A DNA stretch of 29,517 nucleotides. Source: a virus. Lineage: Duplodnaviria; Caudoviricetes. Made by a program: the position numbers and the translations under genes. The notes beneath the pieces are model-generated. The model worked only from the letters and a program-made list of their open reading frames with translations, was not told the origin of the DNA and searched no databases. Of the stretch, positions 6,226 to 28,038 are shown piece after piece. Every line of letters begins with the position of its first letter. Within the stretch, counting starts at the first letter, position 1. The stretch is taken from the IMG/VR virus record IMGVR_UViG_3300036943_000184, positions 1-29,517 of that record. One strand, 5' to 3'.

Positions 6226-6544
6226 GAGTAGGAATTAACTTCTTTACAAATATACCAGCACTTGCCGGGTTCCTATTCATTTCTTTGATAAGTTCCTCAC
6301 CCGGTCTACTACGCCCATGCATAGCACACCACGTATCAAAACGGTCTCCATATCCGAGCAGCGTCCCCCCACTAAACTCAGTGGCAATCCGAATAATATC
6401 GTCAAGCTCTTCATTCGTTTTATTCGCTATCTCATTCCGTAAAATGAATCCGCGTTCAGCAGCAGTTAATTGCTTTCTACCCGTTTTCGATCGGTAATCT
6501 ATGTACTGCTCAATAAGTTCAAGCGACTTCTTTTTCGTTTCCAT
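6164..6544 (-). CDS. Hypothetical protein
   Basis: 126 aa, overlaps its neighbours in operon fashion, GGGGA SD. Confidence 0.6.
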   Translation of the reverse strand: METKKKSLELIEQYIDYRSKTGRKQLTAAERGFILRNEIANKTNEELDDIIRIATEFSGGTLLGYGDRFDTWCAMHGRSRPGEELIKEMNRNPASAGIFVKKLIPTHAMLYRSYCSFISGRGRGRV

Positions 6545-7457
6545 AATCCCCTGCCTTATCTAGAAACTTTCGATACCCCGCGGAGTGCTCCATTCTAAAT
6601 ATGAAATTATTTCGCGTCCGTACACTGCTTATTTGATTCAATAGAAACGCCTTCGCATAAGCATACGGTATTTTGAATTGTACAACCGCACTGTAATATG
6701 TCTTCGAACCTTCTTTCTTCCCCTTCTGCCGTACCATAATAGTAAGACCGTCTCCATTATATTTCAGCTCCATATCCTTGGCTTTTTTTGGAAGGTACCA
6801 TTTTTTTCCTGATTTGGGTTTTCCTTTCAATACCTTGGCATTTTTATTTTTAATCATGCGTCTAACATGCTCTGTAGATAATTCGCCAGTAATGTCCCAC
6901 CCCCCAACCCTTTTCTTTGCGGCGGATAATATAGACGGCTTGACTACAGGAAGCTCAGTAGAGTGCTTTCCCTCTTTGTAATCATAATATACATTCCCCT
7001 TCTTACTGATGACTTTCGTCTTCAGCTTCGTTTTTGGTCTTGTACTATATGTATTTTTTAGTTTCAACAGTGACCTTCCAAACATATCAAGCACGCTCTG
7101 TTTTTCTCCGGGGGTAGCATTGGCCCGTCGCACCCGATCGACAACATCTTTATATATACGGTGTGCCTGAGACGCATCGTTATTTTTTATATCTTTGACT
7201 AACCCTTCAAAACTAAATATACCTCGACTTTGTAAAACATCGTCTACAATTGCCCCAAGACTACTTGCCATCGAGTATTCAAAATAGCTCTGAGCAGATT
7301 CCTTTTTTGCTTCTATCTGTTCTTCAGTAGTTTTAGTCTCGGCAATCTTTATCCACTTCTTACCAACTTTTTTATACTTATTCCCATCGGCCCATGTTCT
7401 TACTGTGTTTTCCGGGAGTGCTTTTGCTTTTGTTATGGTATATATCATTGATTCCAC
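6519..7457 (-). CDS. Basic hypothetical protein with a short leader, ITKA motif and a 'P-G/N-T...KK...KW' module; candidate virion cargo
   Basis: MESMIYTITKA|KALPENTVRTWADGNKYKKVGKKWIKI; GGAGG SD. Confidence 0.7.
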   Translation of the reverse strand: MESMIYTITKAKALPENTVRTWADGNKYKKVGKKWIKIAETKTTEEQIEAKKESAQSYFEYSMASSLGAIVDDVLQSRGIFSFEGLVKDIKNNDASQAHRIYKDVVDRVRRANATPGEKQSVLDMFGRSLLKLKNTYSTRPKTKLKTKVISKKGNVYYDYKEGKHSTELPVVKPSILSAAKKRVGGWDITGELSTEHVRRMIKNKNAKVLKGKPKSGKKWYLPKKAKDMELKYNGDGLTIMVRQKGKKEGSKTYYSAVVQFKIPYAYAKAFLLNQISSVRTRNNFIFRMEHSAGYRKFLDKAGDYGNEKEVA

Positions 7458-9247
7458 GGAGCGTCCTCCTCCCGATGTAACGGATAATTAAAAGTAGCTT
7501 CCATTGCCTTTATTCTATCGGTGATTTCAGACTTTACAAAGGGAATAAGATTCATTTCTGCCATCTTAGCGTGTACAACTAACCCTCCCGCATCATTCTT
7601 CGACTTACTGACTATTTCCAATGCGGGTGCACGTACAATAACCTCTTCTTCATCATCATACTCTCCAACCCCACTACTAATTATCGCCTCCATAAACCCC
7701 TGATTTTCTCCCGCCTCAATCAAATTGGCTACATCAACCCCTACAATGGGGTTATCTTCACTATTGTCAATCACAAGAAGAACCCTAGTAACCCCTTGAA
7801 ACTTCCTACTCGCGATTTCTTCGCTATGGGTAAAAGACGCCAGTCCAATTGGAATTACATCACCTATTTTACCTTTCTCCCATTCATCATTTCCAGTCCC
7901 ACGGTATAAAAACTCATCCTGTATCTTTGACATCTTTGCTTCAATGGTAGCAACAATAGGATTAAATGACCCAGACGGTTCATCTACATTTCCTACCTGT
8001 GCGGCAACTCTTCGCTCATTATCCAACGCCTTCGCATCCTCTCGGTTTTCATTAACACTTCCCCGAACCCATCGACCAACTATTTCTAAATCCTCATAAG
8101 ACCAAGCCTCTCCATAATCATCAAGAATAGAGACATCCTCAGTCATTGCGCTTTCTGCTTCCTCTGCCGCATCTTCCTGTATCCGCTTTGCGACATACAG
8201 ACCCATATCGCCCTCATAAGCAAACGCTATAACTGCCGCCCCATACATATATGTATCAGCCAAACTAGGGTATTCAACATCAAAATCGTCAGCATCAAAC
8301 ATCTCAGAAGTTAAATCCTGACCTGCGTCTTCAGCCCATTTCAGAATATCATCTTCATAAGCGGCTATATCGTTGTAGTCATTACTTGAAAGGGCCTCCT
8401 GTATAGTATCAATATTCCTCCGTAACGTTTCTGCCGAATCAAGATCAATATTTTGTTGAACTGCCAGTCTGACGTCATCCTCCTCATATATTGATATGTC
8501 ACGCCGAACCCTTGATACATCATTGCCCGTTTTCATGTCCCAGTTTTCTTCAACCCAGCTTTTTACAGTTTGATAATCCGTTCCGGTAAGTTTAGAATAC
8601 CCATCCTCCTCGTTAAAGTCTCCTTGAAAAAAATCTGCGAATATTGATCTGATCTCATCATCACGCTCTTCATCAGTGAGTACTTTTGTCGGCTCAGTAT
8701 AACTATAGGTTTCGGGGTCTGAACCGGATAAGGGAACATCTGTAATTTTATCCCTTGAATCCAAAAGCTGCTGCATCCCTTTTTCAGTATACTGTATAGT
8801 TCTATTTTTTAACGATTCTATCGCTTCCTCGGGGGAATACTCCCCCGGTCCAACTCGTAAACCAGTAGTCAACTCCGATACTACATACTTCGGGCCTATA
8901 GTTTGGGATTCTTTATCCATGGCCAAATGGCATACAAACGTAGCCCCCAGGTACCTAAATACCGAATGGATATATTTTGAGGGTACCTTTGTTCTTTGTT
9001 TGTTTCCGTAGGTATGCTGGATATAAAATCCATCCGGCATATTCTTTATATCCCGTGGATTATCTGGAAGTTCTTGTTCAACCTGTCCTTGAGTTATTAT
9101 CGTCGGCCCCTCCGGGGGAGTATCCGCCTTTACATAAAAGGTCTGCATAAAAGTCTTTCCGTTTTTAGTAACCTGTTTTTTTACCGGAACCAGACCTGTT
9201 TTTGCTTTACTCAGTCTTGATGGACTCGTCCGTATTAGTAATTTCAT
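7445..9247 (-). CDS. Multidomain protein with C-terminal R-S-E clade ADP-ribosyltransferase domain
   Basis: FLYRGT (Arg), LASFTHSEEIA (Ser strand), YDDEEEVIV (ExE) in the right order. N-terminal leader ends in LSKA, followed by the GLVPVKKQVTKNGKTFMQTFYV module. Confidence 0.7.
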   Translation of the reverse strand: MKLLIRTSPSRLSKAKTGLVPVKKQVTKNGKTFMQTFYVKADTPPEGPTIITQGQVEQELPDNPRDIKNMPDGFYIQHTYGNKQRTKVPSKYIHSVFRYLGATFVCHLAMDKESQTIGPKYVVSELTTGLRVGPGEYSPEEAIESLKNRTIQYTEKGMQQLLDSRDKITDVPLSGSDPETYSYTEPTKVLTDEERDDEIRSIFADFFQGDFNEEDGYSKLTGTDYQTVKSWVEENWDMKTGNDVSRVRRDISIYEEDDVRLAVQQNIDLDSAETLRRNIDTIQEALSSNDYNDIAAYEDDILKWAEDAGQDLTSEMFDADDFDVEYPSLADTYMYGAAVIAFAYEGDMGLYVAKRIQEDAAEEAESAMTEDVSILDDYGEAWSYEDLEIVGRWVRGSVNENREDAKALDNERRVAAQVGNVDEPSGSFNPIVATIEAKMSKIQDEFLYRGTGNDEWEKGKIGDVIPIGLASFTHSEEIASRKFQGVTRVLLVIDNSEDNPIVGVDVANLIEAGENQGFMEAIISSGVGEYDDEEEVIVRAPALEIVSKSKNDAGGLVVHAKMAEMNLIPFVKSEITDRIKAMEATFNYPLHREEDAPWNQ

Positions 9248-9722
9248 ATGTCACCGCCCCTACTGTACTCTCTTCATTGGAATAGTCTTGTACCCATATA
9301 CTCCCAAGGATTCCCAACAAAGCAACAAATATCATAACCAATGCTGTCGCCCCAAACTTAGCAATAGCATGGATTTCTTTCTGAGCATTGTCGATATTCT
9401 TCTGTAACTGCTTTGTAGTATTACGGAACTCTATCGCTAAATCCCCCATACGAACATCCATCCCATTTATCCGGTCACCAAATCCATTAAAAACTTTGTT
9501 TTCCATCCGGCGTATCGTATCTGTATGCCTGTTCAAAATGTCAGAGTGCCCTTGAATAACAGTCACAATTGATGAGTGTTCCTTCAAAGCAGCGGTATTT
9601 TCCGAAAGCTCTTTATCTATTTTATCAAACCGCCCACTACATACAAGTTTATACTGCTGTCCACTTGTCAGATTTGTCCCATCCTGAGATTTTTTCCTTG
9701 GTGCCATATAATAATCTCCCAT
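9207..9722 (-). CDS. Coiled-coil protein with one C-terminal transmembrane helix
   Basis: Heptad-like region followed by FGATALVMIFVALLGILGSIWV. Confidence 0.65.
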   Translation of the reverse strand: MGDYYMAPRKKSQDGTNLTSGQQYKLVCSGRFDKIDKELSENTAALKEHSSIVTVIQGHSDILNRHTDTIRRMENKVFNGFGDRINGMDVRMGDLAIEFRNTTKQLQKNIDNAQKEIHAIAKFGATALVMIFVALLGILGSIWVQDYSNEESTVGAVTYEITNTDESIKTE

Positions 9723-10432
9723 TACTTGAAAAATCTCCCCACCACCAACCGAATTGCCTTTACAATATCCGCCAAAGTCATCGTAAACCGTACAGGATTC
9801 CCCGCTATCTCTACTTCTGTATAAAAGTCATCAGCGTCAGGGACATATTCGTACCCGCTTCCTGACATCACCGCCTCTCCTCGGGAATCGCCAGTAGTTT
9901 TTATCATATCGCTTTTTCCATTCTCTACAAATAGAATAGTATCCTGATGGTATTTTGTACCTAGTCGCATCAGCTCTTCTTTATTCGCGTCATGACACAT
10001 AACAAATAAACTCTCTTCCGGCTCTCCATATCTACCCTTAGCGGGGGTATACATAAACCCCTTATCTATCAAGTCTTGTTTTAGCTTCGCATCCCGCCTG
10101 CGTATCTGCGCATCGGACATATGTTTATCAGAGGAACGTTCAGGATTACGCCCTGCACTAATCATACAAAAAGTAGAATTATTAAGTAAATAATCAAGGT
10201 CCTTTCTGGATGATATATGCTTTGCTCCACCTTTTCCCGGATCGCGCCGTCGAAACATTGCCTTCAACCGTTCAGGAGTATGCACAACCTCTTCCGCCGC
10301 TATATGCGCATGTTTGCCAGTCGGTAGGCGATACACGTATATCCACTTACCGTTTTTTCCTTTGTACTTTCGCAAGTATTTCGCCTTCAAAAGATCGCTC
10401 TTTAATAGTTTTGCCAACTGTATTGCGTTCAT
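9722..10432 (-). CDS. DUF3293-like protein with leader and 'KY..K..GKW.Y.Y' module
   Basis: CMISAGRNP...LKQDLIDKGF...GRYGEPEESLFV...LMRLGTKYHQDTILF resembles DUF3293. Flanked by LLKS/LLKA and IVKA motifs. Confidence 0.6.
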   Translation of the reverse strand: MNAIQLAKLLKSDLLKAKYLRKYKGKNGKWIYVYRLPTGKHAHIAAEEVVHTPERLKAMFRRRDPGKGGAKHISSRKDLDYLLNNSTFCMISAGRNPERSSDKHMSDAQIRRRDAKLKQDLIDKGFMYTPAKGRYGEPEESLFVMCHDANKEELMRLGTKYHQDTILFVENGKSDMIKTTGDSRGEAVMSGSGYEYVPDADDFYTEVEIAGNPVRFTMTLADIVKAIRLVVGRFFK

Positions 10433-10433
10433 A

Positions 10434-10799
10434 TTATACTCCCTCTCGGTTATGCTCTCCGGGTATGGTGTGTAACTTTGCAGCAGTAATTGACTCTTCG
10501 GCCATCACTATCGCCCTCTCAAGAGACATTCGATCATTCAACGCTTGCTCATATCTATCTTTAAGATTGAAATATTTCTCATCCCTTTCTTTCGGTTTAT
10601 TAGACACATAAGGTTCAAGCCTCTTTTTCAGCCCTCTCAATTCATTGTTTATTCGCCCAATATGCTTAGACGCCGTATCGATTATCCATTCCTGTTCGCG
10701 GATAATCTCTTCGGACTTAACTCCAAGCTTCACCCTCTGTTTATCAAGTTTATTCGCACTCTGTTCTACTGTATCACGCACTTCTGGTCTCCTTTTCAA
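10434..10799 (-). CDS. Hypothetical coiled-coil protein
   Basis: 121 aa, helical, fills the gap between neighbours. Confidence 0.6.
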   Translation of the reverse strand: MKRRPEVRDTVEQSANKLDKQRVKLGVKSEEIIREQEWIIDTASKHIGRINNELRGLKKRLEPYVSNKPKERDEKYFNLKDRYEQALNDRMSLERAIVMAEESITAAKLHTIPGEHNREGV

Positions 10800-13700
10800 G
10801 TTTATTCAAAAGACCAAAAAACCCAGTATCGTCGGCACCAGAAACTCCTCTTGGGTTCCCCATAATACCCTGCTCACGACGCTTCGTTTCCAGAATATCC
10901 TCACCACGCATATCAAGAGGATTGTTTCCACTAAGTACATATGTATGAGTATCACGATTCTGGCCCTTTCTGAATACCCTCGCGTTCCGCTGCTCAAACG
11001 CCGAGTAGCTATCTGGAATATCAAGATGAAAAGTAACTGTACCCCCACCCTGCAAATTATGACCCGATTCAAGACTTTTAGTACCCACAATAAAGCGTAA
11101 AGGATCGTCCGGGTCATTGAATCTCTTCTTCAATTTTCGGACTTCGCTTGCCTTAGTATCCCCGTCTATAATCCCACAACATCCCTTTCCATACTCCCTC
11201 TCAAGCCGCGCTATTGTAGTTGCCGCCGCTTTCTTGACCGGAACTCCGGGCCTGGATACATGGATGACTGCTTTTCCTCCCGGATGCCGCTCATTCATAA
11301 TATTAACCATTTGAGTTAGCTTCGCATTATCCTGATCGCCACTATCAGTAACAATCTCATAATTTCTTGAATCACGCTTTGCCGCCGCACCGGGAACCTT
11401 TCTTTCTCGCTCCTCTCGATACAACCGTTCACTAGCCGCATATGCCTTTCTTTGTTGAGCGGTAAGGGGAACCCTAAACCGTTCCACCGTATTTTTAATG
11501 GGAAGGTTATTTTTTTGAGTATATGTCCACCGTGAAATCTCTTTTCTGAATGCATCATTGGCCGCATCAGCAAATATGCCCGTCCCTTGGTTTAATCCTT
11601 TATACCGTTTTTCAAAATCACTCATCGACCCCAAAGTATGGTCGGGGTCTATAAAATTGATTTTTCTGTATAGCTCCTTCTTTTTGTTTTTGATGTTCGT
11701 ACCGGACATTCCAATTTTGAGCGGAATATCAGAAAGCTCCATCAAACCTTTATATCGCCCCGACCCCCCAGTTCCGGCAGTCATTTCATGAATCTCATCC
11801 ACAACTACCATATCATATCCCGCATCCTTTAATGCTTGATAGTCTGTCCGTAACTGATCATGCCCAATTATCATAATCCCATCTTGCTTATATCTTTCCA
11901 ATCGAGCTTTTCGACTAAGACCCTCGTGCGCATATCGTACATTTCCCTGCTCTTCCGAATCGAGAAACGTTTTTCGCTCATCGTACATCTGACCACGAAG
12001 CTTTGCCGGAGTAACAATAAGAACCTTCTTCGCCCCCATATTCTTCATTGCTTCCATAGCCGCCGAATACGCCACAGCAGTCTTACCAAGCCCGGCCTCA
12101 AAATCCAACAATACATGCTTCTGTTCTTTGAAAAACCTCAAACCCGCCTCTTGTGCCGGGAGTAATTCAATACTATCTTTAATCCCCGGCGGCTTATACC
12201 CATCATTGGCAGAATAATTTTTTATACTGGTCAAAGTGTCTTCGGTATCTCTCAACTCGGCATTCTTTTTGAAGAACATATCAAGATCGTCCTTCTTTAT
12301 TTCCAATATAAGCCGTTTGCCTTTTCCCTGCTTTACCGTTTTGATGGAATAAGTTCCCTTTTCCAACCCGGCCTTCTTTGCCTTTTTCCGCGCCCGTGAA
12401 AGGTCTTTCCCTATATCCACTTGGACAACATCCCCCGGAGGGTCTTCCAATGCATTTATCATATGCGCAACTGCCCGAAGCGATCCTACAGCCGTACCGA
12501 GTGCCCTCTGCCCCGCGGTTATTTGCTTCAAAGCGTGGCCATTTGCCGACGCCATTGAAAGTATCGCCTCTGCATCTTCAGTATCTCGTGCAAGGTTTCG
12601 GAGCTCTTCCGCATTCTCAAATCGACGAGTACTTTCCTCCATTGCCTGATCGACAACCTTCTGGCGTTCGGTCTCTGCATAAGCTTCGAGTGCTTTTCGA
12701 ACTACCTCACCCTTACCATCCCGTTGTAATTTTATCGTTACTGCCCGTGCAATAGCCTCCAATCCGAGCTGTTCTACAGTCTCCGTCGAGAAAGTCGCAC
12801 CTACGCCATAGATATCCCCCAATAACCCATTCAATGCCGAAACAGAACCCTCATCCACATACTTTTGGATAGTCTGTGATTGCGCGTTTAGTTTGTCATA
12901 AAGGGCTATATTTTTCTGGGTCTCGATCTGATCCTTAATCTCTTTCTCAATATCTTCCAAGTCCTTCTTACTTACTCCGGCATATACTTCCCCGACTCTA
13001 AGGGTAGAAGGCACATCCGCAACTCCCTTTCCGATCTCTTTCATTTTTTTTCTAAACTGTCTACGGGCGGCAAGAATCTCTTTCGCTTTATCTGTATCAA
13101 GAAGCTTTTTCAACTCGTTCTTTGCATTCGGGTCTTCGGGCATGTAATCATTCATTAACGTATCGAGGGCCTGACGTTCTACATCCTTTATCTTTCTCTT
13201 AATCGCCTTTTCCACTTCTTTTTCAGTTTGGGTATCTACCTCTTTCTGAAACTGTTGTTCATCTATAGTCTTTGCTCTCTTACGCCCCTCGACCATTTCC
13301 TTCGCACGGTCTACCAACTCGGTCATCTCATTCGTAGTAATCTCATTTCGTATGTCTTCCTTTGACATACCAAGTATCTGGGTAACCTGTTCTGTATATA
13401 ATTCACGGGCTTCGCGCTTTGCCTTCAATTCTTCCCGATGCTGGCGTACATGCTCTGCCTTTTCCTCCGCTGTAAGTTCGCGGGTCTCTTCTTTTCGTTT
13501 CTCTTCAACTTTCTTCCGTTTTTCTTGATAACCTTCCTCAGTAAGAACCCTATCTATCTTCAAGTGATTGAGCTTACCTCCCGCACCACCTACTACGACA
13601 TACCCACCATCGGCAGTACCTTGTATAAGAACATGCGCTCCACGGATAGTCACCCATCTCATGCCCCGGGCCTTCACCTCATCGGGGCTATAATAACTCT

Positions 13701-15486
13701 TTGTCCCTGTAGCTTTTTCGAGCCCATGAAACCACCAAAATGGAATTATCTTTCGCCCCTCTTTCAGGTACCAAATCCCCTGATCGCTTTTCATTAGGGA
13801 CATATCTGGAATTATATATCCCATTGATTTTTCCATTGCATACACTACCTTATGATCTAACGCGCTGTCTAAGAATGAAGTCAACTGTGATTTGGGAACC
13901 AAATGAACACTCTCTGATTCCCACCCCATATCAGTAGGACGCCCCCCAACCCTTCGCCCTGTATAATACCGAGTAACTGAAGTAGTCCTTGCTACGTCAG
14001 TCAGGTATCCAGTTATCTCTACCTTTAATCCACTCTCTTCCCATGTTTCCTTTATGGCGTTCGCTTGCATAGAAAGTCCGGGGTCTACCTTTCCTTTTGG
14101 AAACGTATTTTGATACCCCCCAAACCCCCCGGCAGGAGACACTACCCATACCCGACCGTCCGGCTCTTCTACTACCACCCCTGAAGCTGTAGGCATCCCA
14201 GTAAGCGGCGCATCCGGCTCTTCTATATCATAGTTTTGCCCCTCCACATTTTTCCAACCCTCTTGTGATTGTGGGGGAGACCAAGAAGTAAACGGGATAC
14301 CGTTTAGCGCATTTGCAACCGGACTGTCGGTAGTAAATGACTCTACCTTGGAGGAGCTTTTCGCCTTTGTCAAATCTTTCAACGAATCAATTCGAAGCTC
14401 CATCGTTCTACGTAACTTCGGGTCATCTATTGCATGTAAAATCTGTTGTTTTTTTGCAAGAACTGTATCCACCTGATCTGCAATCTCCTCATCCGTCACA
14501 TCCTGAAATACTCTCCCAGCACCCATATACGGATTGCGCATTGTGGCTATCTCACCAACCTCTGCACCAAAGGAATCCCCCTTTGGCTTTCCTTGTGCTC
14601 GGTAACGCATTGAACCCCCATTATCAATCCGCCATGCCCTCTCGCCATCCCACAAAATATTATCTTCATCCAACCCAAGAACATCCCAATTACCAAGTAA
14701 CGCATCCGCAACAAATCCGTCCTTTAAGCTCTCTATCGCCTCATCGCGCTCTTCATAATCCAAATCCGACAGCGGTGTTCCCTCAATATACTCTGCCGCC
14801 TGTGCTATTCCATTTTCAGTGTCGACCATTTTTACTTTCGGTACCGGAACTCCAAGGATATTATAAATCTTATTAGCAACATATTCCTCTTTCAGATGTT
14901 CCGGGCTAGTAGACTGCTTCAACACAACCCGCTCCCCAGATAAAGACTGTGCTAAAATCGCACCACCAGTAGTTCCGCCAAGATTTTGAAGCTCATTATA
15001 AACAAGCTTCCTCGGCTTTCGTTTGGTATTGCCGTTATTCGGGTATACGTAATTCCACCTACCGTTTTTGTAGTACTTTTTTATGTACTTTGATTTCTCC
15101 AAACTAATTCCGCGTTTGATAATTTCCTCATTCAACGCCTCCAATCGAATCGCCGCAAGATTCACCAAACGTATTTTATTAGCGGTCTTTGGCATTTTAC
15201 TAAAACGATCAAGGTCATTTGAAGTTGATTTGAACTCGTCAATTAGTTTATCATCCGCCATAGTATGAAAAGATTTGAAATCTGGTTTTTGATTATATTT
15301 ATTCGATACCGAAACCCATTTTCCTTCAGCCACCTTTTTCCGGCCATGAGATACTGTTCCTATAGGCATTCGCTTTGCCTTTTCTATACCATCATTTTTT
15401 AAGTCATCTAATCCAATATGACCAATAGTATCATCCATATTAAAATTACCCTTCGTATCAATCAACTCACGCCTACCACTTTTCAT
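10774..15486 (-). CDS. Giant polyvalent protein: HipA/PI3-4-kinase-like domain + Nudix hydrolase + SNF2-like SF2 helicase (likely start 15486, not 15585)
   Basis: Kinase: LGGTTGGA, VLKQ, EEYVANKIY, DALLGNWD...DNI, RIDNGG. Nudix box: FPKGKVDPGLSMQANAIKETWEESGL. Helicase: EAGLGKT, VVDEIH, SGT, ESGHNLQ, QRNARVFRKGQ. GGAGG SD precedes ATG 15486. Confidence 0.85.
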   Translation of the reverse strand: MKSGRRELIDTKGNFNMDDTIGHIGLDDLKNDGIEKAKRMPIGTVSHGRKKVAEGKWVSVSNKYNQKPDFKSFHTMADDKLIDEFKSTSNDLDRFSKMPKTANKIRLVNLAAIRLEALNEEIIKRGISLEKSKYIKKYYKNGRWNYVYPNNGNTKRKPRKLVYNELQNLGGTTGGAILAQSLSGERVVLKQSTSPEHLKEEYVANKIYNILGVPVPKVKMVDTENGIAQAAEYIEGTPLSDLDYEERDEAIESLKDGFVADALLGNWDVLGLDEDNILWDGERAWRIDNGGSMRYRAQGKPKGDSFGAEVGEIATMRNPYMGAGRVFQDVTDEEIADQVDTVLAKKQQILHAIDDPKLRRTMELRIDSLKDLTKAKSSSKVESFTTDSPVANALNGIPFTSWSPPQSQEGWKNVEGQNYDIEEPDAPLTGMPTASGVVVEEPDGRVWVVSPAGGFGGYQNTFPKGKVDPGLSMQANAIKETWEESGLKVEITGYLTDVARTTSVTRYYTGRRVGGRPTDMGWESESVHLVPKSQLTSFLDSALDHKVVYAMEKSMGYIIPDMSLMKSDQGIWYLKEGRKIIPFWWFHGLEKATGTKSYYSPDEVKARGMRWVTIRGAHVLIQGTADGGYVVVGGAGGKLNHLKIDRVLTEEGYQEKRKKVEEKRKEETRELTAEEKAEHVRQHREELKAKREARELYTEQVTQILGMSKEDIRNEITTNEMTELVDRAKEMVEGRKRAKTIDEQQFQKEVDTQTEKEVEKAIKRKIKDVERQALDTLMNDYMPEDPNAKNELKKLLDTDKAKEILAARRQFRKKMKEIGKGVADVPSTLRVGEVYAGVSKKDLEDIEKEIKDQIETQKNIALYDKLNAQSQTIQKYVDEGSVSALNGLLGDIYGVGATFSTETVEQLGLEAIARAVTIKLQRDGKGEVVRKALEAYAETERQKVVDQAMEESTRRFENAEELRNLARDTEDAEAILSMASANGHALKQITAGQRALGTAVGSLRAVAHMINALEDPPGDVVQVDIGKDLSRARKKAKKAGLEKGTYSIKTVKQGKGKRLILEIKKDDLDMFFKKNAELRDTEDTLTSIKNYSANDGYKPPGIKDSIELLPAQEAGLRFFKEQKHVLLDFEAGLGKTAVAYSAAMEAMKNMGAKKVLIVTPAKLRGQMYDERKTFLDSEEQGNVRYAHEGLSRKARLERYKQDGIMIIGHDQLRTDYQALKDAGYDMVVVDEIHEMTAGTGGSGRYKGLMELSDIPLKIGMSGTNIKNKKKELYRKINFIDPDHTLGSMSDFEKRYKGLNQGTGIFADAANDAFRKEISRWTYTQKNNLPIKNTVERFRVPLTAQQRKAYAASERLYREERERKVPGAAAKRDSRNYEIVTDSGDQDNAKLTQMVNIMNERHPGGKAVIHVSRPGVPVKKAAATTIARLEREYGKGCCGIIDGDTKASEVRKLKKRFNDPDDPLRFIVGTKSLESGHNLQGGGTVTFHLDIPDSYSAFEQRNARVFRKGQNRDTHTYVLSGNNPLDMRGEDILETKRREQGIMGNPRGVSGADDTGFFGLLNKLEKETRSA

Positions 15487-17875
15487 ATTTCCCTCCATAT
15501 TTTCGGGCAAACTCTTGCATTCGTATATCCTGTGCCCTTGCCTGTATCTCTGGAGAATTGAACTTCTTTTCATCTTCTTTATCATTTCCCGTACTTAACT
15601 GTTTCATAAGTTTTCTTACCCCATCTAAACACTCACCCTGAAACGCGTCCATAATATGATCTGCTATCATTATACGAACAGAAACCTCTATACGATCGGC
15701 ATTCTCTGGGGTATCTGAATATATTTTTTTGGCGTCATTCACGAACTTATGATACAGATTCTCTCTAAGATTTTCAAACCCGGAATACCGGAATGTGGTT
15801 GATTTGGTAACGGCGACAATACTTTCAAGACCCGACATAATCGCCATTACAATGTCCGCCGGGCTCAACGTTATAGGCGGCTCTCCGGGAAAGGAGGGGT
15901 GATTATGAATTACGGTTGCACCACGAAGTCTGAACGCCTCATCTGCGGTAAACACTACTGAAGTATCCTTTCCACTTTTTGCCAAAATCTGGTTCCCATC
16001 AGAGTCAAATGCAAGTGCCCGTTCATATTTATTTCCGGTATACTTGAATATACTTTCCCGCGCCCGCGATACTAACTCTCTCAGAGGATCACCTGTACTC
16101 GCACGCTTTCCGGTCACCCGTTCCCATTTACCACCCCCAATCTTTTTCCACCTCGATCCATCCCTATGAGTAGTTATAGAACCCGGAGCCATCTTCTTTG
16201 CCTTTTCGATCCGTTCGGTAATTGCCATGATTGCTTCCATGAACTTATCAAACGTAGGCAGTCTCCCACTACTACTCAAAGTTTTAAGCACCGCTGAAAG
16301 GCTTAATAAATCACTTTGTGCCTTCTCCATAAAAACTTTCTTCGACGCATCCACAAAGTTGTCAGTAGCAATAGCCCCCCGTCCCATTCCAAGTTTTTCG
16401 TACAGCCTCTTTTCATAAAACCACATAACTGCCTGTACTTCTGAAGGAATAAGTCCCAACCTATCAGCTACCGTCTGCATTACATATTCAACATTCTTTC
16501 TCTCACCAACTGACATCCTGTCGTTGATAACTCGAACACGTCCTTTTCCAACCTCTCCAGTTTGTAGGCCCTCGGTCAATGTACCTGTCCACCTATAATA
16601 GGAACGAATCGCCCACCGGTCCACTGCAACTGCCCCTTCGGTACCGCGCATACTCTGATAAAACATTCCTACCTTTTCACCAAATATCATCGCATTAAAC
16701 GCCGCCTCATCTTTCTTCCCGCTGATCTTTGAACCGTATCCAGCATTCAAATCACCGACAGTAGAAACCCCATTCATGAACTGTACAAAACTGTCAACAT
16801 TCGGGAACATAGATAATCTTTTTTTGAACCTCTTCAGAAGAGCAGTACCGGCAATCGAAAAAGCTTCTTTTGTCCGTGGGTCCTTTACTGGTATTTCTCC
16901 CGTCTTGCGATAATGGTCATATACTATCACCGCATTTCGAAGATTTGGTGTAGGTGCTTGTGTAGGAGAGGTAATCGCCAAAATACTGAGAAAGAAATCC
17001 CACTCTACATCTCCTGCCAAATCAGGGTAATGGGTTATCAAAATAGAACGGGTTTCGTCCATCGCCTCTCTGTACCAGTCTTTTCCACTTTCCTCCCTTT
17101 TCAATGCGTACTCTACTTCCTCAGTTGCGATATTGATAATATCATACAGAGATGGTTTTTCTTTTCCCTTGAAAATAGCTTTTTGGAATGCAAGTATTTT
17201 GTCCACAGCCAATTTATCGTTCGGGGCATAATCAATCACCCTTCGCTGGTCTTTCATAATCTTGATTGTACTTTCTGGAATGTTTCGATTTTTTATTACC
17301 TCTGAGGTAACGGCTTTTTTCTTCGCCCGTTCTTTTTCCTCAGCTCTGGTACTCCCAACATACACGGTAGTCATAAAAGTCTTACCCCCACGAGTAACCA
17401 ACTGCCTCCGTGGGGTGAGACTTTTCTTCAGCTTCATACCCTTCCGATCTTTGAGCATCCGCTTGAATGTTGCCATGTCATAAGTACTCATACTTTGAAA
17501 GAACCCCGGCTTATCATATTGACGCAGATAGGCCGCCTTTGCTTCAGCAGCACTATTAAATCCGAGCATTACCTTGTCTTCATCGAACCTTTTTGTTTCG
17601 GGTATTTGTTGATGTACCACAAACACCTTTTCAGAATGGCTATTCGGACCGACATATACATCAACATGATCGCCGTCGGTGCCTTCGGTAAGCCGAATAT
17701 ATCCATACGCAATGTGCATAAAGGTACGCCATACATGTCCGGTAGCTTCTTCTATACCCTGACGATAACTTCCCCGTTCGTTTTCAATGCTTATAGGCAG
17801 CCCCTGAAAGGTTATATATCCCTGTAGTTTTCTGCTTCTCCAATCGGTCGCATTTGTAATGATACCTCTTGTCAT
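15473..17875 (-). CDS. Polyvalent protein: phage inorganic-pyrophosphatase-like (InPase) + helical glycosylase-like domain + JAB/MPN domain
   Basis: InPase: GLPISIENERGSYR...YGYIRLTEGTDGDHVDVYVG...FDEDKVMLGF. Middle domain: WY...AITSP...N...KVGMFY...AVDRWAIR...PSEVQAVMW. JAB: E...IHNHPS...LSPAD. Confidence 0.78.
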   Translation of the reverse strand: MTRGIITNATDWRSRKLQGYITFQGLPISIENERGSYRQGIEEATGHVWRTFMHIAYGYIRLTEGTDGDHVDVYVGPNSHSEKVFVVHQQIPETKRFDEDKVMLGFNSAAEAKAAYLRQYDKPGFFQSMSTYDMATFKRMLKDRKGMKLKKSLTPRRQLVTRGGKTFMTTVYVGSTRAEEKERAKKKAVTSEVIKNRNIPESTIKIMKDQRRVIDYAPNDKLAVDKILAFQKAIFKGKEKPSLYDIINIATEEVEYALKREESGKDWYREAMDETRSILITHYPDLAGDVEWDFFLSILAITSPTQAPTPNLRNAVIVYDHYRKTGEIPVKDPRTKEAFSIAGTALLKRFKKRLSMFPNVDSFVQFMNGVSTVGDLNAGYGSKISGKKDEAAFNAMIFGEKVGMFYQSMRGTEGAVAVDRWAIRSYYRWTGTLTEGLQTGEVGKGRVRVINDRMSVGERKNVEYVMQTVADRLGLIPSEVQAVMWFYEKRLYEKLGMGRGAIATDNFVDASKKVFMEKAQSDLLSLSAVLKTLSSSGRLPTFDKFMEAIMAITERIEKAKKMAPGSITTHRDGSRWKKIGGGKWERVTGKRASTGDPLRELVSRARESIFKYTGNKYERALAFDSDGNQILAKSGKDTSVVFTADEAFRLRGATVIHNHPSFPGEPPITLSPADIVMAIMSGLESIVAVTKSTTFRYSGFENLRENLYHKFVNDAKKIYSDTPENADRIEVSVRIMIADHIMDAFQGECLDGVRKLMKQLSTGNDKEDEKKFNSPEIQARAQDIRMQEFARKYGGKYEKW

Positions 17876-17950
17876 TCATTACCCCTCGCAACATCCAAAT
17901 CCTTTAACATCTTACTACCTCTTTTATTCAAGATAGATACTGCCTTCTTC

Positions 17951-18838
17951 CTATGTGATGTATTTCACAATTTCCATCTTTCCAGATGGCATTTCATACC
18001 ATGTCATCCGTAGTCCCGAGTTCGACACGGGCTTATACGTCGCCTGTCCATTCAGGTTTCGCCCCTGATCGAGTTTCCCCATCTGTAGAAATGCTTCTCC
18101 CTCTGAACCCAAAAACATACCCGACCACTTTGTCCCATCTTCTTGAATTAATACATAGCCTTCCTTCCGTAAGGCTTCTTGCATTTCACCGATAGGTATA
18201 CCATTATAGTAATTTCCAGGTAATGCACTGCGAAGCGCATTATTTAAACTTTTACGGGTTTTCGTAGTAACCTTTGGAGGATCAGGAACTTCAGAATAAG
18301 AGCCTACTCGGGGAAGATTCCGGCCTTCCAAAATCTCGGTTGCCCTCTTTATCTTTTGCCCCGAAGTCTCTCCGAGATCACCCCCTATTCTTGGTGACCT
18401 ACTCCCATATTCATAATGCCATTTACCGTCTTTGCCTCTCCAACGTTTTGTATACTTGGCTTTTTGAAGTTTTACAGCAGATACAATAGATTTCTTCATA
18501 ACTCGTTCCTGATCTTCAGTTGCAATTACATTACCATACCTCAAAGATTTTTTTCCCCGCCCACCAAGCTCAACTAAACGTCCGGTGGAACTATCAAAAA
18601 TACTATTACTTCCTTCCATTTGAGCGCTAAATCCTTCAAAAGTATCTTTCACGTCTCCAGATTTAATTGCGATATTATACGCTTTCCTTTTTTCTGAATT
18701 GGTCATCGACGGCCATTTCTTTGGTTTTGCTTTCAATTTTCCGTATTCATAGTGCCATTTTCCGTCCTTACCACGCCATCTTTTTGTGTATTTGGCCTTT
18801 AACAATTCAGTCGGTAAAAATATTTTTATCATTTCCAT
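17951..18838 (-). CDS. Two-part hypothetical protein; each part begins with the identical KAKYTKRWRGKDGKWHYEY module
   Basis: LLKA|KYTKRW... and LQKA|KYTKRW...; AGGAG SD. Confidence 0.75.
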   Translation of the reverse strand: MEMIKIFLPTELLKAKYTKRWRGKDGKWHYEYGKLKAKPKKWPSMTNSEKRKAYNIAIKSGDVKDTFEGFSAQMEGSNSIFDSSTGRLVELGGRGKKSLRYGNVIATEDQERVMKKSIVSAVKLQKAKYTKRWRGKDGKWHYEYGSRSPRIGGDLGETSGQKIKRATEILEGRNLPRVGSYSEVPDPPKVTTKTRKSLNNALRSALPGNYYNGIPIGEMQEALRKEGYVLIQEDGTKWSGMFLGSEGEAFLQMGKLDQGRNLNGQATYKPVSNSGLRMTWYEMPSGKMEIVKYIT

Positions 18839-19370
18839 ATATACTCCTTAAATGGTATCAATAATCCTGTAGCTCGCCATTTTCATCAAACCAATCATCA
18901 TAAAACCCTGACATATCCTCAGTAACTATATCTCTGTGCGTTATTACCACATTGGATTTTTTCTTCCATATATACCCCAGCCCCTCTTCATAGACATATG
19001 GTGGAACATCCACCTTCACGATCGTTTCCGTATTGTGGTTTACAATATAGGTAGATGTATGATAATCATACTCATTGTATAGAGTAAATGTTTCATACCC
19101 AAGATCGGACAACTCATCAGAAATAGCAGTCGCGATATCGTCACAAATGCCTCCCGAACCGTACCCTTCAGCGTACCCCTCATCATCCTGATCCCAATTG
19201 TTATAAACCACATTTGCTATGGAGGCTAACTTTGGAGCTACATCCTTTACATGTGCCATAATCGCCCGCGACTCTGTTGGAAGCTCATGCTTTACAGGTT
19301 TACGTACCCGAGGGTATTCATAATGCCACTTCCCGTCTTTTCCTCTCCATCGCTTGGTATACTTAGCTTT
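18407..19370 (-). repeat. Three dispersed 57 bp coding repeats (18407-18463, 18743-18799, 19314-19370) encoding an identical 19-aa peptide
   Basis: Same peptide in all three copies, with many synonymous differences. Confidence 0.9.
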
Positions 19371-19406
19371 TGATAAAAGCAACGATGTCGGTTTATATAA
19401 TATCAT
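18858..19406 (-). CDS. Putative papain-like (Cys-His-Asp) domain protein with leader and KY module (likely start 19406)
   Basis: MILYKPTSLLLSKA|KYTKRW...; GGICDDIATAI ... YHTSTY ... KVDVP gives a C-H-D order. Confidence 0.55.
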   Translation of the reverse strand: MILYKPTSLLLSKAKYTKRWRGKDGKWHYEYPRVRKPVKHELPTESRAIMAHVKDVAPKLASIANVVYNNWDQDDEGYAEGYGSGGICDDIATAISDELSDLGYETFTLYNEYDYHTSTYIVNHNTETIVKVDVPPYVYEEGLGYIWKKKSNVVITHRDIVTEDMSGFYDDWFDENGELQDY

Positions 19407-19962
19407 CGTCGCACTTCCTACATACCCATCCAGGGATATCAATAAACTGTCCGGGTACTGTATACCCCTCCCACTCATCAGGAAATAAATCCCATTTCGA
19501 GTCTTTCATTATCTCATCAACAAACCCGGAACATACCTCTCCCCACGCCTCATGATTAAAGGGAACCCATTTAATCCATTTCCAGAACCGACGTGTCGGC
19601 CAGATCAATGCCAATACAACCAGCTTCAAAATGTTGTATGGACGCGGCAAAGGAACGACCTTTTCAAGCTCTCTTTTAATCCTGTCCATACGCTCCGGGG
19701 TCGTCTCTAGTCTCCACGGAACCATACATATATCGGGCTCCGGTACATCTGATGGAAACCTTCCATATGTTATTCGTATCCCTGATTCCAGATTACCTTT
19801 TTCGTTTTTCCATACTGTACTCTCGTACACCGCCCCTTCGAATACTAAGGCAACGTGGGTATATGGCATTCCAGTAAAGAATACGATAGCCCGGGATACA
19901 AAATCCCGTGCCCAGTCTTCTTTCTTGTGGTATCTCCAGACAGCTATAGCAAGAGGTTCCAT
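19393..19962 (-). CDS. Permuted papain-like NlpC/P60 enzyme (YiiX/YaeF, C92-like)
   Basis: FTGMPYTHVALV...YES precedes PYN and EVCSGFV...TVPGQF, giving His before Cys. Confidence 0.75.
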   Translation of the reverse strand: MEPLAIAVWRYHKKEDWARDFVSRAIVFFTGMPYTHVALVFEGAVYESTVWKNEKGNLESGIRITYGRFPSDVPEPDICMVPWRLETTPERMDRIKRELEKVVPLPRPYNILKLVVLALIWPTRRFWKWIKWVPFNHEAWGEVCSGFVDEIMKDSKWDLFPDEWEGYTVPGQFIDIPGWVCRKCDDDII

Positions 19963-19983
19963 AGCGCACTCCTTTTTGGTACA

Positions 19984-20511
19984 CTATTTTTCAGGCGTAC
20001 TTGATCCGAGTTCAGACGGGTTTACAACATAGGTTTGCCTACCGAAGTTATCAAAGGCTTGGCTGCTCATACCCGATACTCCGGTATTATAATTTGAATA
20101 CGCCTTTTTCTGGCCAGCTTCACGCCCTTTATGGTCGACAGTTGCAGGCTGATGATCCTTTGCACTTTCCGGCTTCGGTGCCAGCATACGATCCGCGGCC
20201 ATCTTCGCCAGCTTCATTCTTTCAGCATGCCCCTCATAGGGAATCCTGCTCGTTATCCCATCTTTCACTGTTGACAGCTTGGCTGGATGCTGTGACTTTT
20301 CCATGTTGCCCGGAATGATAACCAAAGGGATGCTTGATTTGCTCATTTCTTCCTCCATATCTTCGTCTTCTTCGTCTTCATACTTGCGTTTCTTCTTCTT
20401 ACGGGTTGCAAGTCCCGTACCATCTGCCCTGCCCTTTCCTGGTCCCGCACCCTGCCCGTGTGGTCCCATTCCGTCCTGTTTATATACTCTTTTCATTTTA
20501 TACCTCTCCAA
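19984..20511 (-). CDS. Low-complexity hypothetical protein with MSKS/MEKS motifs
   Basis: 175 aa, GGAGAGG SD, Gly-rich, basic and acidic tracts. Confidence 0.65.
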   Translation of the reverse strand: MERYKMKRVYKQDGMGPHGQGAGPGKGRADGTGLATRKKKKRKYEDEEDEDMEEEMSKSSIPLVIIPGNMEKSQHPAKLSTVKDGITSRIPYEGHAERMKLAKMAADRMLAPKPESAKDHQPATVDHKGREAGQKKAYSNYNTGVSGMSSQAFDNFGRQTYVVNPSELGSSTPEK

Positions 20512-20538
20512 TTTTGATTGAGATAGCTGACCGTGTTA

Positions 20539-20790
20539 CTAATGTATTTTACCCGATTTTCTACCGATATAGGCGCACAACTTACGGGCACTATTCTCAG
20601 ACAATCCTTTCTCCTCCATCTGATATCTCATACAACCCTTGAATCCCCCCTTGAAAGTATTATCGGGGTTTATATAATCACTTTTTGCTTTTTGTAAATC
20701 CTCTTTAATCAAGTCATCAAGAATGTCCGCCGCCTCGATACCCTCTACCATAGATTTTCTCATGTCGCTCGGCTTCATTATCTTTGACAT
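20539..20790 (-). CDS. Small hypothetical head-module protein
   Basis: MRKS and LQKA motifs, then FKGC...GLSENSARKLCAYI. Confidence 0.65.
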   Translation of the reverse strand: MSKIMKPSDMRKSMVEGIEAADILDDLIKEDLQKAKSDYINPDNTFKGGFKGCMRYQMEEKGLSENSARKLCAYIGRKSGKIH

Positions 20791-20800
20791 TTCAATCCCC

Positions 20801-22330
20801 CTATTCTATAACGATCTTCACTGTACGCTCTTTCTTATCCGTCAATTTCTGAAAATCGCTTAATGATTTGCGCATCCCCCTATTCGCATTAGCAAACAAG
20901 TCTTCATCCTGCCCCGCTTCTTCCTCTGGACCCTCCTCTATTCCACCCCCACCTTCTGACATCATTTTCTCCTGCGCCTCTTGTTGTTTCGCCCCTAGAA
21001 ATATTTGTACAGCCTGTGGGTTCAATGGCATTTTCGACCAATCCTCGTCAAACGGTTTCAATTCATCCTCTTCCCGGATTTCATCAATACTTTTCCAACC
21101 AACGATCTGTTTGTTACGTATCTCTGCCTTCTTTTGCTGATCTTCACGCTCAATACCAACAAACCTAAATCGATACTTTTGTGTGCTCTTTCTGATTACT
21201 TTGTTAATGTGCTGTTCAATAAAAGATAGCATCGATGTGAGTCCACGATCCTTGGAATGTTGTATTCTTGGTTCAAGATTCTCCCCTATCAATGCCGTAG
21301 AGTCATCGGTCTTAATTCCCAGCTCGGCCAAATCCATTCCAAACACCGCGGCAACCAAAGATGATACAAACATCATGGTTTTATGATATTCCATATCACG
21401 GTTATTCTGTCCCAGGTTCTTAAAGTCCATTCCGACACCGTCTTTACCGCTTGGCAAAATAGGAATTGTCCATTTCGCCCCCGCGCCACTCATAGCCGCA
21501 TACCAGTAATTCCGTATTGCATCCATCTCCGAAGTTCCTATATCACCCATAACTGATATAAAACCCTTCGGCATTTTATCCTTGATAAGTTGATCGCGTA
21601 TGTAGTTATATCCAAATAGCAAAGTAGTAATAATATCAATGCACTGTTCAACTGGACTGTATCCATATCCTCGATGCTTCATATCTGTTCGCTTGTACTT
21701 ATAATCGAATATCAAATCCTCGTTGGTATACTCTTCATAAATCTTCTCTTCGATCATCTGTACAAACCGAATGCCCCTCTTAAACCGAGCCTCGTCGCTT
21801 ACTCGAAATATTGTCGCCCCATCCAAAGCCCAGAATGATACGACCTCACCTAATCGATTTTTCTGTACCTCGGTGGCGATTTGATCGATCTCGTATATAT
21901 CTCGAATCATCATACTTACATAATCTGCAAGGTCGTCCTCGCGATCTGAGTCGTAATGAAACCCCGTCTGCTCAAGAAAGGTCGCCAATTGTAAAACCTC
22001 CGCATCATCTATATCAGACCCCCTGAACTCATCTGTACGGTCTTCAATTTCGAACTTAAATCCTCTGTCCCCTTTTTCAGTAGCAAACTTAGTAAATGGC
22101 AACACCTGATCTATTCGGGCGTTGATGATTCCATTTATCAATGGTAGTTTTCCCGTTACTCTCCGCAACGTATCAAAGTTCATTTGTAGCACCCGCTCAC
22201 GCACACCATTCGCACCATGCCACAACCATTGCTGTACCCGCGGATCAACCAATTGACTTGTTAGTTTCTTAATAGTTGCGTCGGGGTTTACAAGCTCCTT
22301 CGAAGACTTCTTTTTTTTCTTCCGTGCCAT
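20801..22330 (-). CDS. Portal protein, SPO1/Twort-like
   Basis: 509 aa. Motifs WALDGATI, GYGYSPVE, MPKGFI, NRDMEY, VFGMDLAELG, SKDRGL, SIDEIRE; AAGGAG SD. Confidence 0.92.
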   Translation of the reverse strand: MARKKKKKSSKELVNPDATIKKLTSQLVDPRVQQWLWHGANGVRERVLQMNFDTLRRVTGKLPLINGIINARIDQVLPFTKFATEKGDRGFKFEIEDRTDEFRGSDIDDAEVLQLATFLEQTGFHYDSDREDDLADYVSMMIRDIYEIDQIATEVQKNRLGEVVSFWALDGATIFRVSDEARFKRGIRFVQMIEEKIYEEYTNEDLIFDYKYKRTDMKHRGYGYSPVEQCIDIITTLLFGYNYIRDQLIKDKMPKGFISVMGDIGTSEMDAIRNYWYAAMSGAGAKWTIPILPSGKDGVGMDFKNLGQNNRDMEYHKTMMFVSSLVAAVFGMDLAELGIKTDDSTALIGENLEPRIQHSKDRGLTSMLSFIEQHINKVIRKSTQKYRFRFVGIEREDQQKKAEIRNKQIVGWKSIDEIREEDELKPFDEDWSKMPLNPQAVQIFLGAKQQEAQEKMMSEGGGGIEEGPEEEAGQDEDLFANANRGMRKSLSDFQKLTDKKERTVKIVIE

Positions 22331-27774: not shown

Positions 27775-27892
27775 GCTCCTGTGGGCTGCTCTGAGATACT
27801 ACCAAACTACTTCCCCTGTGAACATGACGCTTTTTCCATCTTTTATTACCTCTCTGATGTCTACCCATAAAACCCCCTTTTTAATTATTGTA

Positions 27893-27964
27893 TAGCCCTG
27901 CCGGGAATTGAACCCAGGTATTTTGATCGAAAGTCAAATGGACTAACCACTATCCTACAGGGCC
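27893..27964 (-). tRNA. tRNA-Glu (anticodon TTC), CCA not encoded
   Basis: GGCCCTG-TA-GGAT-AGTGGTTA-GTCC-A-TTTGA-CT TTC GA-TCAAA-ATAC-CTGGG-TTCAATT-CCCGG-CAGGGCT-A folds into a full cloverleaf. Confidence 0.9.
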
Positions 27965-28038
27965 ATTATACCGCGATACCCGTGGTCGCGGCCCCACACA
28001 AGACACTACTCTAACGGGAGCTCCTTTCAGTCTCCCTA

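Follow-up and report, generated by a model that had tools for sequence, protein, structure and literature searches.

Introduction

Cargo proteins that are packaged in the phage head and processed there are already known from T4, phiKZ, SPN3US and P1, and maturation of the capsid protein at a Lys-Ser bond is known from Herelleviridae. In T4, the internal proteins IPI-III and Alt carry a capsid-targeting sequence and undergo processing by gp21, according to the sections of PMC9026906 available to us. Polyvalent proteins are predicted to be packaged and injected in the accessible portions of Iyer et al. 2017 (PMC5512222), and a paper on Thermus phages, in the part available, hypothesises a packaged DarB-like protein. 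Here we describe IMG/VR virus record IMGVR_UViG_3300036943_000184 (Duplodnaviria; Caudoviricetes), analysed in full over its 29,517 bases and referred to below as the window, and in particular the genes between its portal and MuF genes. These genes repeatedly encode the motif Phi-x-K/[SA], in which the slash marks the presumed cut.

Our reading, which we consider probable, is that this motif is the site of a prohead protease with the fold of T4 gp21, and that the prohead likely takes up the enzymes whose genes lie between portal and MuF. There they are likely trimmed; cuts at conserved borders between modules are predicted, and the products would enter the host together with the DNA. This reading is claimed only for conserved border sites and for sites linked to a short basic hairpin, or tag, that follows many of them.

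A probable Lys-directed prohead-protease site

The window carries a head module of the SPO1/A511 type (portal, cargo genes, MuF, gp21-fold protease, scaffold and capsid). Its minus-strand order is portal, thirteen open reading frames (ORFs), MuF with an intein, two small ORFs, prohead protease, scaffold and major capsid protein. The features on either side of the cargo genes are:

20801..22330, minus strand: portal (Pfam PF04860), with a possible C-terminal site at K488 and a chance site at K381.
4117..6225, minus strand: minor head protein of MuF type, interrupted by an intein; homologues keep K55 and K105 but not the three matches in the intein region.
3362..3805, minus strand: 147-residue ORF with a Com-like zinc ribbon and site K124 (domain profile match and homologue alignment).
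2462..3262, minus strand: prohead protease of T4 gp21/assemblin fold (phrog_1028, structure comparison); H72, S128 and E148 invariant.
1739..2434, minus strand: scaffold with 10 sites, called by position and composition.
342..1739, minus strand: major capsid protein of SPO1/A511/phage-812 type, leader end LQK29/A (sequence comparison).

The capsid protein is kin to those of SPO1, A511 and phage 812. The A511 GenBank record gives a mature capsid protein that begins at S24, after A-L-K23, and this position aligns with L-Q-K29/A of the window; the A511 site, A-L-K/S, has Ala at P3. For a phage-812-type capsid, PDB chain 9row (439 residues) is 24 residues shorter than 5lii (463 residues), so that its first residue would be S25, following V-V-K24, as judged from deposited lengths and alignments and not from the paper. 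Because it aligns with the Lys-Ser mature capsid start of A511 and of this PDB chain, K29 is very likely a prohead-protease site. Among related loci, 64 of 65 distinct capsid N-termini have a site within residues 13-60. The A511 cut was reportedly first mapped by Loessner and Scherer in 1995.

A model of the window protease gave T4 gp21 (5jbl, E 2.7e-4) and then herpesvirus proteases as best Foldseek matches. It matches phrog_1028 (E 7e-24), and residues H72 and S128 are invariant across 33 sequences. A site in the protease itself, K174/A, precedes a copy of the mature capsid N-arm (window 2462-2750, minus strand; 41% identity, E 6e-10), and the proteases of A511, Goe9 and VL10 likewise carry a capsid N-arm copy after a Lys-Ser site of their own. 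This copy may anchor the protease in the shell.

With the strict motif and chance levels taken from 2000 shuffles, 10 sites were counted in the scaffold against 1.0 expected, one fewer than the 11 of the initial annotation; the 12 K[SA] pairs of the protein include AKKA and YRKS. In related loci, reduced to representatives at 70% identity, their ORFs being called mechanically, scaffolds were enriched 8.3-fold in the near clade (413 vs 50 expected, 47 representatives) and 7.9-fold in the far clade (146 vs 18.5, 22 representatives), proteases 5.3-fold and near-clade MuF proteins 2.7-fold. An Arg version of the motif showed no enrichment in these scaffolds (12 vs 15). Herelleviridae scaffolds carry 10 sites in Goe9 and 8 in VL10. 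Scaffold sites prefer L/M at P3 and S/A at P1'. The earlier proposal that the motif is the prohead-protease site is thus supported by homologous mature capsid starts, scaffold enrichment and the gp21 fold of the protease.

The near relatives are uncultured phages of 87-96 kilobases (kb), and among cultured phages Touem01, Mecenats66, PHB04, Dolphis and Thermus phages are distantly related. No host was assigned because the metagenome-assembled-genome labels of the near relatives conflict (Thorarchaeota, PVC, Woesearchaeota, Thermoplasmatales).

Predicted cargo genes between portal and MuF

The genes of the cargo block are listed below; tags A, B and C are described in the next section.

20539..20790, minus strand: 83-residue ORF, sites K12 and K34 (sequence and homologue check).
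19984..20511, minus strand: 175-residue ORF, K58 kept in 1/1 and K72 in 2/2 homologues (alignment).
19393..19962, minus strand: 189-residue ORF without site or tag, probably outside the tagged set (weak phrog_1128 match).
18858..19406, minus strand: ORF listed as 206 residues, likely start 19406; 13-residue leader, site, tag A (19308-19364), acidic domain.
17951..18838, minus strand: 295-residue ORF; leader, K14, tag A (18737-18793), small module, K116/K126, second tag A (18401-18457), C-terminal domain.
15473..17875, minus strand: 800-residue polyvalent protein; InPase, K151, tag C (17348-17422), K232, DUF7178-containing domain, K518/K558, tag B (16115-16192), JAB-like domain (Pfam PF18823, PF23802).
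10774..15486, minus strand: giant polyvalent protein, 1603 residues as listed, likely start 15486; K69, tag B (15301-15369), K164, tag A (15034-15090), kinase-like domain, K407, Nudix, K586/K599/K624, SNF2 helicase part (Pfam NUDIX, SNF2, Helicase_C).
10434..10799, minus strand: 121-residue untagged ORF directly after the helicase gene, with 12 homologues in related loci.
9722..10432, minus strand: S-adenosylmethionine (SAM) lyase; leader, K16, tag A (10325-10381), C-terminal K225 before a short hydrophobic tail (Pfam PF23780 above cut-off).
9207..9722, minus strand: 171-residue ORF with a hydrophobic segment, without site or tag, probably not cargo.
7445..9247, minus strand: 600-residue protein; leader, K14, tag C (9125-9199), acidic middle, R-S-E ADP-ribosyltransferase (ART), tail site K572 (alignment, AlphaFold model, Foldseek).
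6519..7457, minus strand: 312-residue basic protein; 10-residue leader, site, tag B (7344-7418), with 19 homologues in related loci.

The sites quoted in the initial annotation are all present: in the giant ORF, IEKA (15376-15387), LEKS (15091-15102), LTKA (14362-14373) and MEKS/LMKS/LEKA (13711-13836); in the 800-residue ORF, LKKS (17420-17431), MEKA (16319-16330) and IEKA (16199-16210); in the 600-residue ORF, LSKA (9203-9214) and FVKS (7529-7540); and LQKA at K29 of the capsid protein.

Pfam matches above cut-off were obtained in the window cargo for InPase, DUF7178, Nudix, SNF2/Helicase_C and SAM lyase, and the C-terminus of the 600-residue protein has an R-S-E ART fold by alignment and Foldseek. 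On this evidence from sequence and models, the cargo domains are polyvalent-type effector enzymes (InPase, Nudix, SNF2, ART, SAM lyase), as the initial annotation had proposed. Its labels for the kinase and JAB domains rest on motifs: the kinase-like domain of the giant ORF matches Pfam PF09192 at E 0.002 and 18 bits, below the cut-off of 24, and the JAB-like domain has HNHPS and SPAD motifs, no Pfam or NCBIfam match, and K633 and K691 inside it. PDB sequence searches returned no ART or kinase homologue. The SAM lyase and the basic hairpin tags, the latter a more specific mark of cargo, had been overlooked. The window InPase matches a DarB-like PHROG. Atlas structural neighbours of the 800-residue protein are fused to MuF, portal or minor capsid domains, all of them under the bar for naming. 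Searches of Pfam, PHROGs, NCBIfam and Atlas gave no family for the tags or for the bodies of the 295-, 206- and 312-residue ORFs; the C-terminal domain of the 295-residue ORF stands alone behind a leader and tag in related locus L151. The 189-residue ORF (19393-19962) shows a His-then-Cys spacing that we take to resemble that of a permuted papain-fold enzyme.

Five window genes begin with a leader that ends in the motif, and all five starts are preceded by a Shine-Dalgarno-like sequence (-7.2 to -11.9 kcal/mol). In the near clade, a site lies within the first 22 residues in 65/248 head-block genes compared with 18/257 control genes (p=4e-9), which bears out the earlier description of cargo genes with such leaders; in the far clade the contrast was not significant (6/90 vs 4/138). 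Cargo leaders match the scaffold in their preferences at P3, P1 and P1' (P3 L 6.0-fold, M 5.1-fold; P1' S 5.8-fold, A 2.4-fold). The same leader and site occur in the cultured phages PHB04 and Mecenats66 on genes bearing helicase, methylase, InPase, Nudix and kinase domains, some of which lie outside the portal-protease interval. One 2553-residue ORF, in genome G001, has 21 sites.

Several further features of these genes were recorded. In locus L174 (2862-8084), tagged leader-plus-site genes stand among neck and tail-sheath genes, so that cargo genes can also lie outside the head block. Short hydrophobic strands similar to the leaders occur at other removable-looking ends, namely the SAM lyase tail (9725-9757), the portal tail (20801-20830) and the MuF N-terminus; possibly one docking strand is used at either end of a protein. 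Near relatives also have a small untagged gene after the helicase gene, and Cumys, PHB04 and Mecenats66 have genes of 80-88 residues in the same place. The gene in this position in the window (10434-10799) is possibly an obligate partner.

Basic hairpin tags follow the sites

Behind ten of the window sites stands one of three tags, basic and aromatic beta-hairpins of 18-25 residues with a mean charge of +4 to +6: tag A (Y-x-K-R-W...G-K-W-x-Y-x-Y, five copies), tag B (P-x-G-T-x-R...K-K...W, three copies) and tag C (L-V-P-V-K-K-x-V...K-T-F...Y-V, two copies). Tag profiles were built without the site, from seeds picked after the pattern had been noticed. They found 93 copies in related loci, none of them in post-capsid or pre-portal genes. 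A strict site lies no more than 14 residues upstream of 33/37 copies of tag A, 21/49 of tag B and 5/7 of tag C, and if P1' is relaxed to S/A/G/H/T the numbers become 35/37, 44/49 and 6/7 (background 6% strict, 11% relaxed). In two near-complete genomes the tags are restricted to head-region genes (4/117 and 5/101 ORFs). Locus L175 (4991-7813) encodes a 940-residue portal with tag A and a long C-terminal extension; the same phage has a 543-residue protease-like gene with 7 Lys sites. In cultured phages, the tag profiles found no copy in loci L002-L005, and tblastn gave only weak tag matches (E 0.2 or worse), and none with a query of a His-type protein of the kind described below.

The tag A profile was also run against 1.84 billion representatives and matched 168 proteins. 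In the best 150 of these 168, a strict site precedes 162 of 199 tag-A copies (background 8%), in a set that includes some seed proteins and in which tag and site are co-inherited, so that the counts are not independent events. Pfam was scanned with 143 of these proteins (7 under 100 residues were omitted); among the matches listed, 45 have a Pfam match and 98 have none at 1e-4, and the domains found include ART-PolyVal, Kinase-PolyVal, InPase, ddrB-ParB, MuF, PBECR2, RelA/SpoT, Acb1, SAM lyase and GNAT. Once the entry from the window itself and two doubtful matches had been set aside, 42 of the 45 remained; in these, sites inside the listed Pfam stretches numbered 13 against 20.8 expected, and sites outside, where the tags are included, 267 against 99.0.

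Conservation separates border sites from chance matches

Aligned homologues divided the sites into two classes, with border sites kept and interior ones lost. In the giant ORF, K69 (3/3 homologues), K164 (1/1), K586 (1/1), K599 (2/2) and K624 (6/7) are kept, and K793 (3/22), K964 (4/23) and K1452 (3/28) are not. The SAM lyase keeps K16 in 5/5 and K225 in 6/6 homologues, and MuF keeps K55 in 20/20 and K105 in 19/23, against 0/5 for each of the intein-region sites. K151 of the 800-residue protein is kept in 3/5, K124 of the 147-residue ORF in 14/20 and portal K488 in 3/6 covering homologues (against 0/14 for K381). K10 of the 312-residue protein is kept in 3/9 by the strict motif and in 9/9 with G/H/T allowed at P1'. 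In the 600-residue protein K548 is kept in 0/9; K572 is kept in 4/9 by BLAST columns, and its Lys is invariant in 8 aligned sequences. An AlphaFold model of this protein has a disordered leader, a hairpin at residues 20-39, K548 in a strand of the ART fold and K572 in a low-confidence tail helix. On grounds of conservation, and for K548 also the model, we rejected K793, K964, K1452, K548, portal K381 and the three intein-region matches as chance.

Internal border sites are retained at 35 to 63% protein identity, and module borders often have two or three sites, some of them without a tag. The claim that sites lie at domain borders is made here for the conserved border sites; the first description had left out matches elsewhere (K565, K793, K964 and K1452 of the giant ORF, K633 and K691 of the 800-residue ORF, K548 of the 600-residue ORF). 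As for motifs buried in folds, K548 lies in an ART strand and K633 and K691 inside the JAB-like domain, but sites in tagged proteins are mostly outside Pfam stretches.

Three further observations lie outside the cargo block. The MuF intein spans approximately residues 354-655, and many relatives lack it; within its region lies a 181-residue plus-strand ORF (4198-4743) with a basic, helix-turn-helix-like sequence. The first 45 residues of the 147-residue ORF (3362-3805, minus strand) also head proteins of 960-1170 residues, encoded between MuF and protease in relatives (L026:5764-9285, L029, L031), and are a possible fourth, helical cargo module. The early region contains a tRNA-Glu(TTC) gene at 27892-27965 (minus strand).

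A possible His-type site in another head clade

Among the matches listed, tag-A copies without a Lys site have [LIMF]-x-H just upstream in 19/27 cases, compared with 7/172 of the others, and the 18 His-type and 126 Lys-type tag-A proteins do not overlap. In the His-type locus L187 such genes lie between a presumed terminase and a presumed portal of a different phage group, which we take to be the one labelled DUF7211. Arrays of small genes with Phi-x-His leaders, some with tag A, were seen between terminase and portal in L187 (459-3182) and L202 (12992-17004). In 79 loci of the L187-type group there are two distinct tag-A copies, both His-type. The large head proteins of this group, taken from position and size to be protease-scaffold-capsid fusions, are not enriched in Lys sites (28 vs 36.5). 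They are enriched in [LIMF]-x-H (167 vs 68), a weak control, since the Lys clade shows an excess of this pattern too (113 vs 65). Viral contigs gave no match to a DNA pattern written for one His-type tag variant.

Proposed mechanism and alternative explanations

We propose the following sequence of events. The protease would cut capsid and scaffold after Lys, a step that homology to the mapped Lys-Ser sites makes highly probable. Packaging of the tagged proteins is likely, given gene position, polyvalent domains and the fusion of tags to portal and MuF. Removal of the short hydrophobic leaders or tails is also likely; they would act as docking peptides on the scaffold core, comparable to the T4 capsid-targeting sequence. 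Internal cuts may well release modules, many of which would start with a retained basic hairpin that binds packaged DNA or a head protein; the protease would act as the head matures, and the released modules would be retained inside it. After injection, it is plausible that these enzymes serve early host takeover or anti-defence, the SAM lyase against restriction-modification, the ART and kinase-like domain on host proteins, and Nudix and InPase on nucleotides. The hairpin is located after the cut, on the mature side, and so differs from the signal that is removed. Judging by its charge, it may bind DNA and be ejected with it; a head protein is an equally possible partner.

Several results weigh against this proposal. 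Cutting, packaging and injection are all biochemical steps that we infer, and the papers on Mecenats66 and the Thermus phages contain no virion proteomics in the text available. The per-residue comparison suggested in the initial annotation places the cargo ORFs above shuffles (32 sites vs 14.9 expected in 4917 residues, p=0.0005), but the excess is only 2.1-fold, and the early ORFs reach 1.7-fold (7 vs 4.1 in 2081 residues, p=0.12); the rates are 6.5 and 3.4 per 1000 residues, a contrast without a direct test of its own. Head-block genes of related loci are enriched only 1.5 to 1.7-fold, and in genome G002 9 of the 14 genes flagged by a leader site sit outside the head block. The A511 scaffold has 2 sites against 1.3 expected. 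Of the borders cited at first, K407 is absent from the single covering homologue (0/1), and K232, K518 and K558 have no covering homologue. In the model of the protease, the strand that bears the catalytic S128 ends at K136, an invariant residue, so that conservation alone is no proof of a cut. The co-inheritance of tag and site and the weak His-type control, noted above, belong here as well. About half of the raw motif matches in cargo genes are chance, and raw density was rejected as a predictor of cargo, the motif alone being too common; the cargo signal comes from position and conservation of the motif.

The proposal is weakest where polyproteins would be cut completely into single enzymes. 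This step depends on the conserved border sites and has the fewest precedents: in SPN3US, as far as the available text of PMC10052503 goes, 13 of the 14 protease cuts take off N-terminal propeptides, and 42 head proteins escape cutting. The proteins might instead be packaged and clipped at leaders and tails with the polyproteins left mostly whole, the internal site-plus-tag units being relics of fused tagged genes. Modules are indeed shuffled among relatives, with InPase fused to the helicase in L006 and L008 and Nudix separate in Touem01 and Mecenats66, and the accessible parts of Iyer et al. 2017 (PMC5512222) have polyvalent proteins packaged or transferred unprocessed. The persistence of internal border sites (K624, K599, K69) while interior ones decay, and the doubling or tripling of sites at borders, some tagless, make this explanation unlikely.

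It is improbable that the cargo motif serves for docking and stays uncut, as a Lys-terminated hydrophobic strand with protease, scaffold or portal as its binding partner, cuts being confined to capsid and scaffold. The leaders are short hydrophobic runs with a terminal Lys, P1' before tag B is looser (G, H, T) than in the scaffold, and targeting and processing residues are separable in T4 according to the sections seen of PMC9026906; but leader preferences agree with those of the scaffold at all three positions, the leaders are disordered in the model, and the residue before tag A is His in another head clade. Still less credible is that the cargo motifs are noise, produced in Lys-rich proteins by composition or helical periodicity, and that the genes are ordinary late or moron genes whose products are left unpackaged, for although the chance share of matches is large and untagged site-free genes stand in the same block, the leader, tag, conservation and inside/outside-domain tests all oppose it, and near-clade post-capsid (75 vs 83.6 expected, 0.9-fold) and pre-portal genes (46 vs 40.2, 1.1-fold) are not enriched.

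Beyond protease-dependent trimming and border cutting, we tentatively raise a broader and rather doubtful idea. Hydrophobic docking leader, exchangeable protease site and retained basic hairpin might form a portable three-part address cassette that plugs any enzyme into capsids of unrelated head types; the protease would dice polyvalent proteins into single enzymes, the hairpin would grip the DNA into the cell, and the site would swap from Lys to His with the protease clade.

Significance

If true, the proposal supplies a concrete rule for how polyvalent proteins enter the head and whether they are cut, which is an open point. Cuts after Lys look tryptic and would be missed by standard trypsin proteomics, which may explain the lack of reports. 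The tags mark candidate day-zero effectors, as tagged proteins carry Acb1, SAM lyase, ART, RelA/SpoT, PBECR2 and ddrB-ParB domains; were the cassette idea to hold, the tag would be a sequence code predicting injected anti-defence proteins, most of them without a known domain. The leaders could serve to load proteins into SPO1-type heads. The rule can be tested in the cultured Thermus phages Cumys and Lalka27b and in Mecenats66 and PHB04; because tags were not found in cultured relatives, these would test leader and site but not the tags.

Comparison with known systems

The open full-text literature, which leaves aside subscription papers and supplements including the files of Iyer et al. 2017, gave no account of Lys sites on cargo, retained tags or a site swap, and the portions available of PMC5618024 and PMC12282133 hold nothing on cleavage sites. 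With Herelleviridae (A511, SPO1-like Goe9, Staphylococcus VL10, phage 812) the window shares homologous capsid and protease and the Lys-Ser/Ala capsid leader. In the A511, Goe9 and VL10 records the portal gene directly or almost directly neighbours the protease gene, and neither MuF nor a cargo block intervenes; in the window, 17.5 kb separate the two. The window capsid protein is less than 30% identical, and the near relatives of the window have 87-96 kb compared with 125-170 kb for Herelleviridae.

The large helicase or methylase head proteins DarA and DarB of phage P1 offer a further likeness, as does the proteolytic cleavage of DarA in the part of that literature seen by us. The giant window protein differs in having no methylase domain, and no DarA or hdf homologue was detected in the window.

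Like phiKZ (gp175) and SPN3US (gp245), as these are described in the available text of PMC10052503 and PMC9026906, the window combines one prohead protease with many head proteins, a short motif and redundant sites. Those are jumbo phages whose proteases cut after Glu and almost only at N-terminal propeptides, unlike the window with its 87-96-kb near relatives.

The polyvalent proteins, so far as the accessible text covers them, share with the window InPase, Nudix, SNF2 helicase and ART domains and, as far as its motifs go, kinase and JAB/RadC-type domains, shuffled and located near MuF and portal. Disparate conflict domains occur within single window chains (Nudix plus SNF2; InPase plus DUF7178), amid virion and packaging genes and in shuffled architectures. 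For their processing, the portions of Iyer et al. 2017 (PMC5512222) available propose an embedded zincin metallopeptidase (MPTase) or C-terminal assemblin-like domains and name no Lys motif, tags or cutting in trans by a prohead protease; no zincin MPTase was detected in the window.

Finally, the window shares with T4 a gp21-fold protease, a scaffold with many presumed cut sites, putative short N-terminal propeptides that end in the protease site, and an ART as predicted cargo. The P1 residue is Glu in T4 and Lys in the window phage, whose leaders share a pattern and not one sequence, and which in contrast to T4 has a basic hairpin on the mature side and sites inside multi-enzyme proteins. T4 Alt is trimmed at both ends, as far as the available text describes it, and the same is predicted for the ART and SAM lyase of the window.

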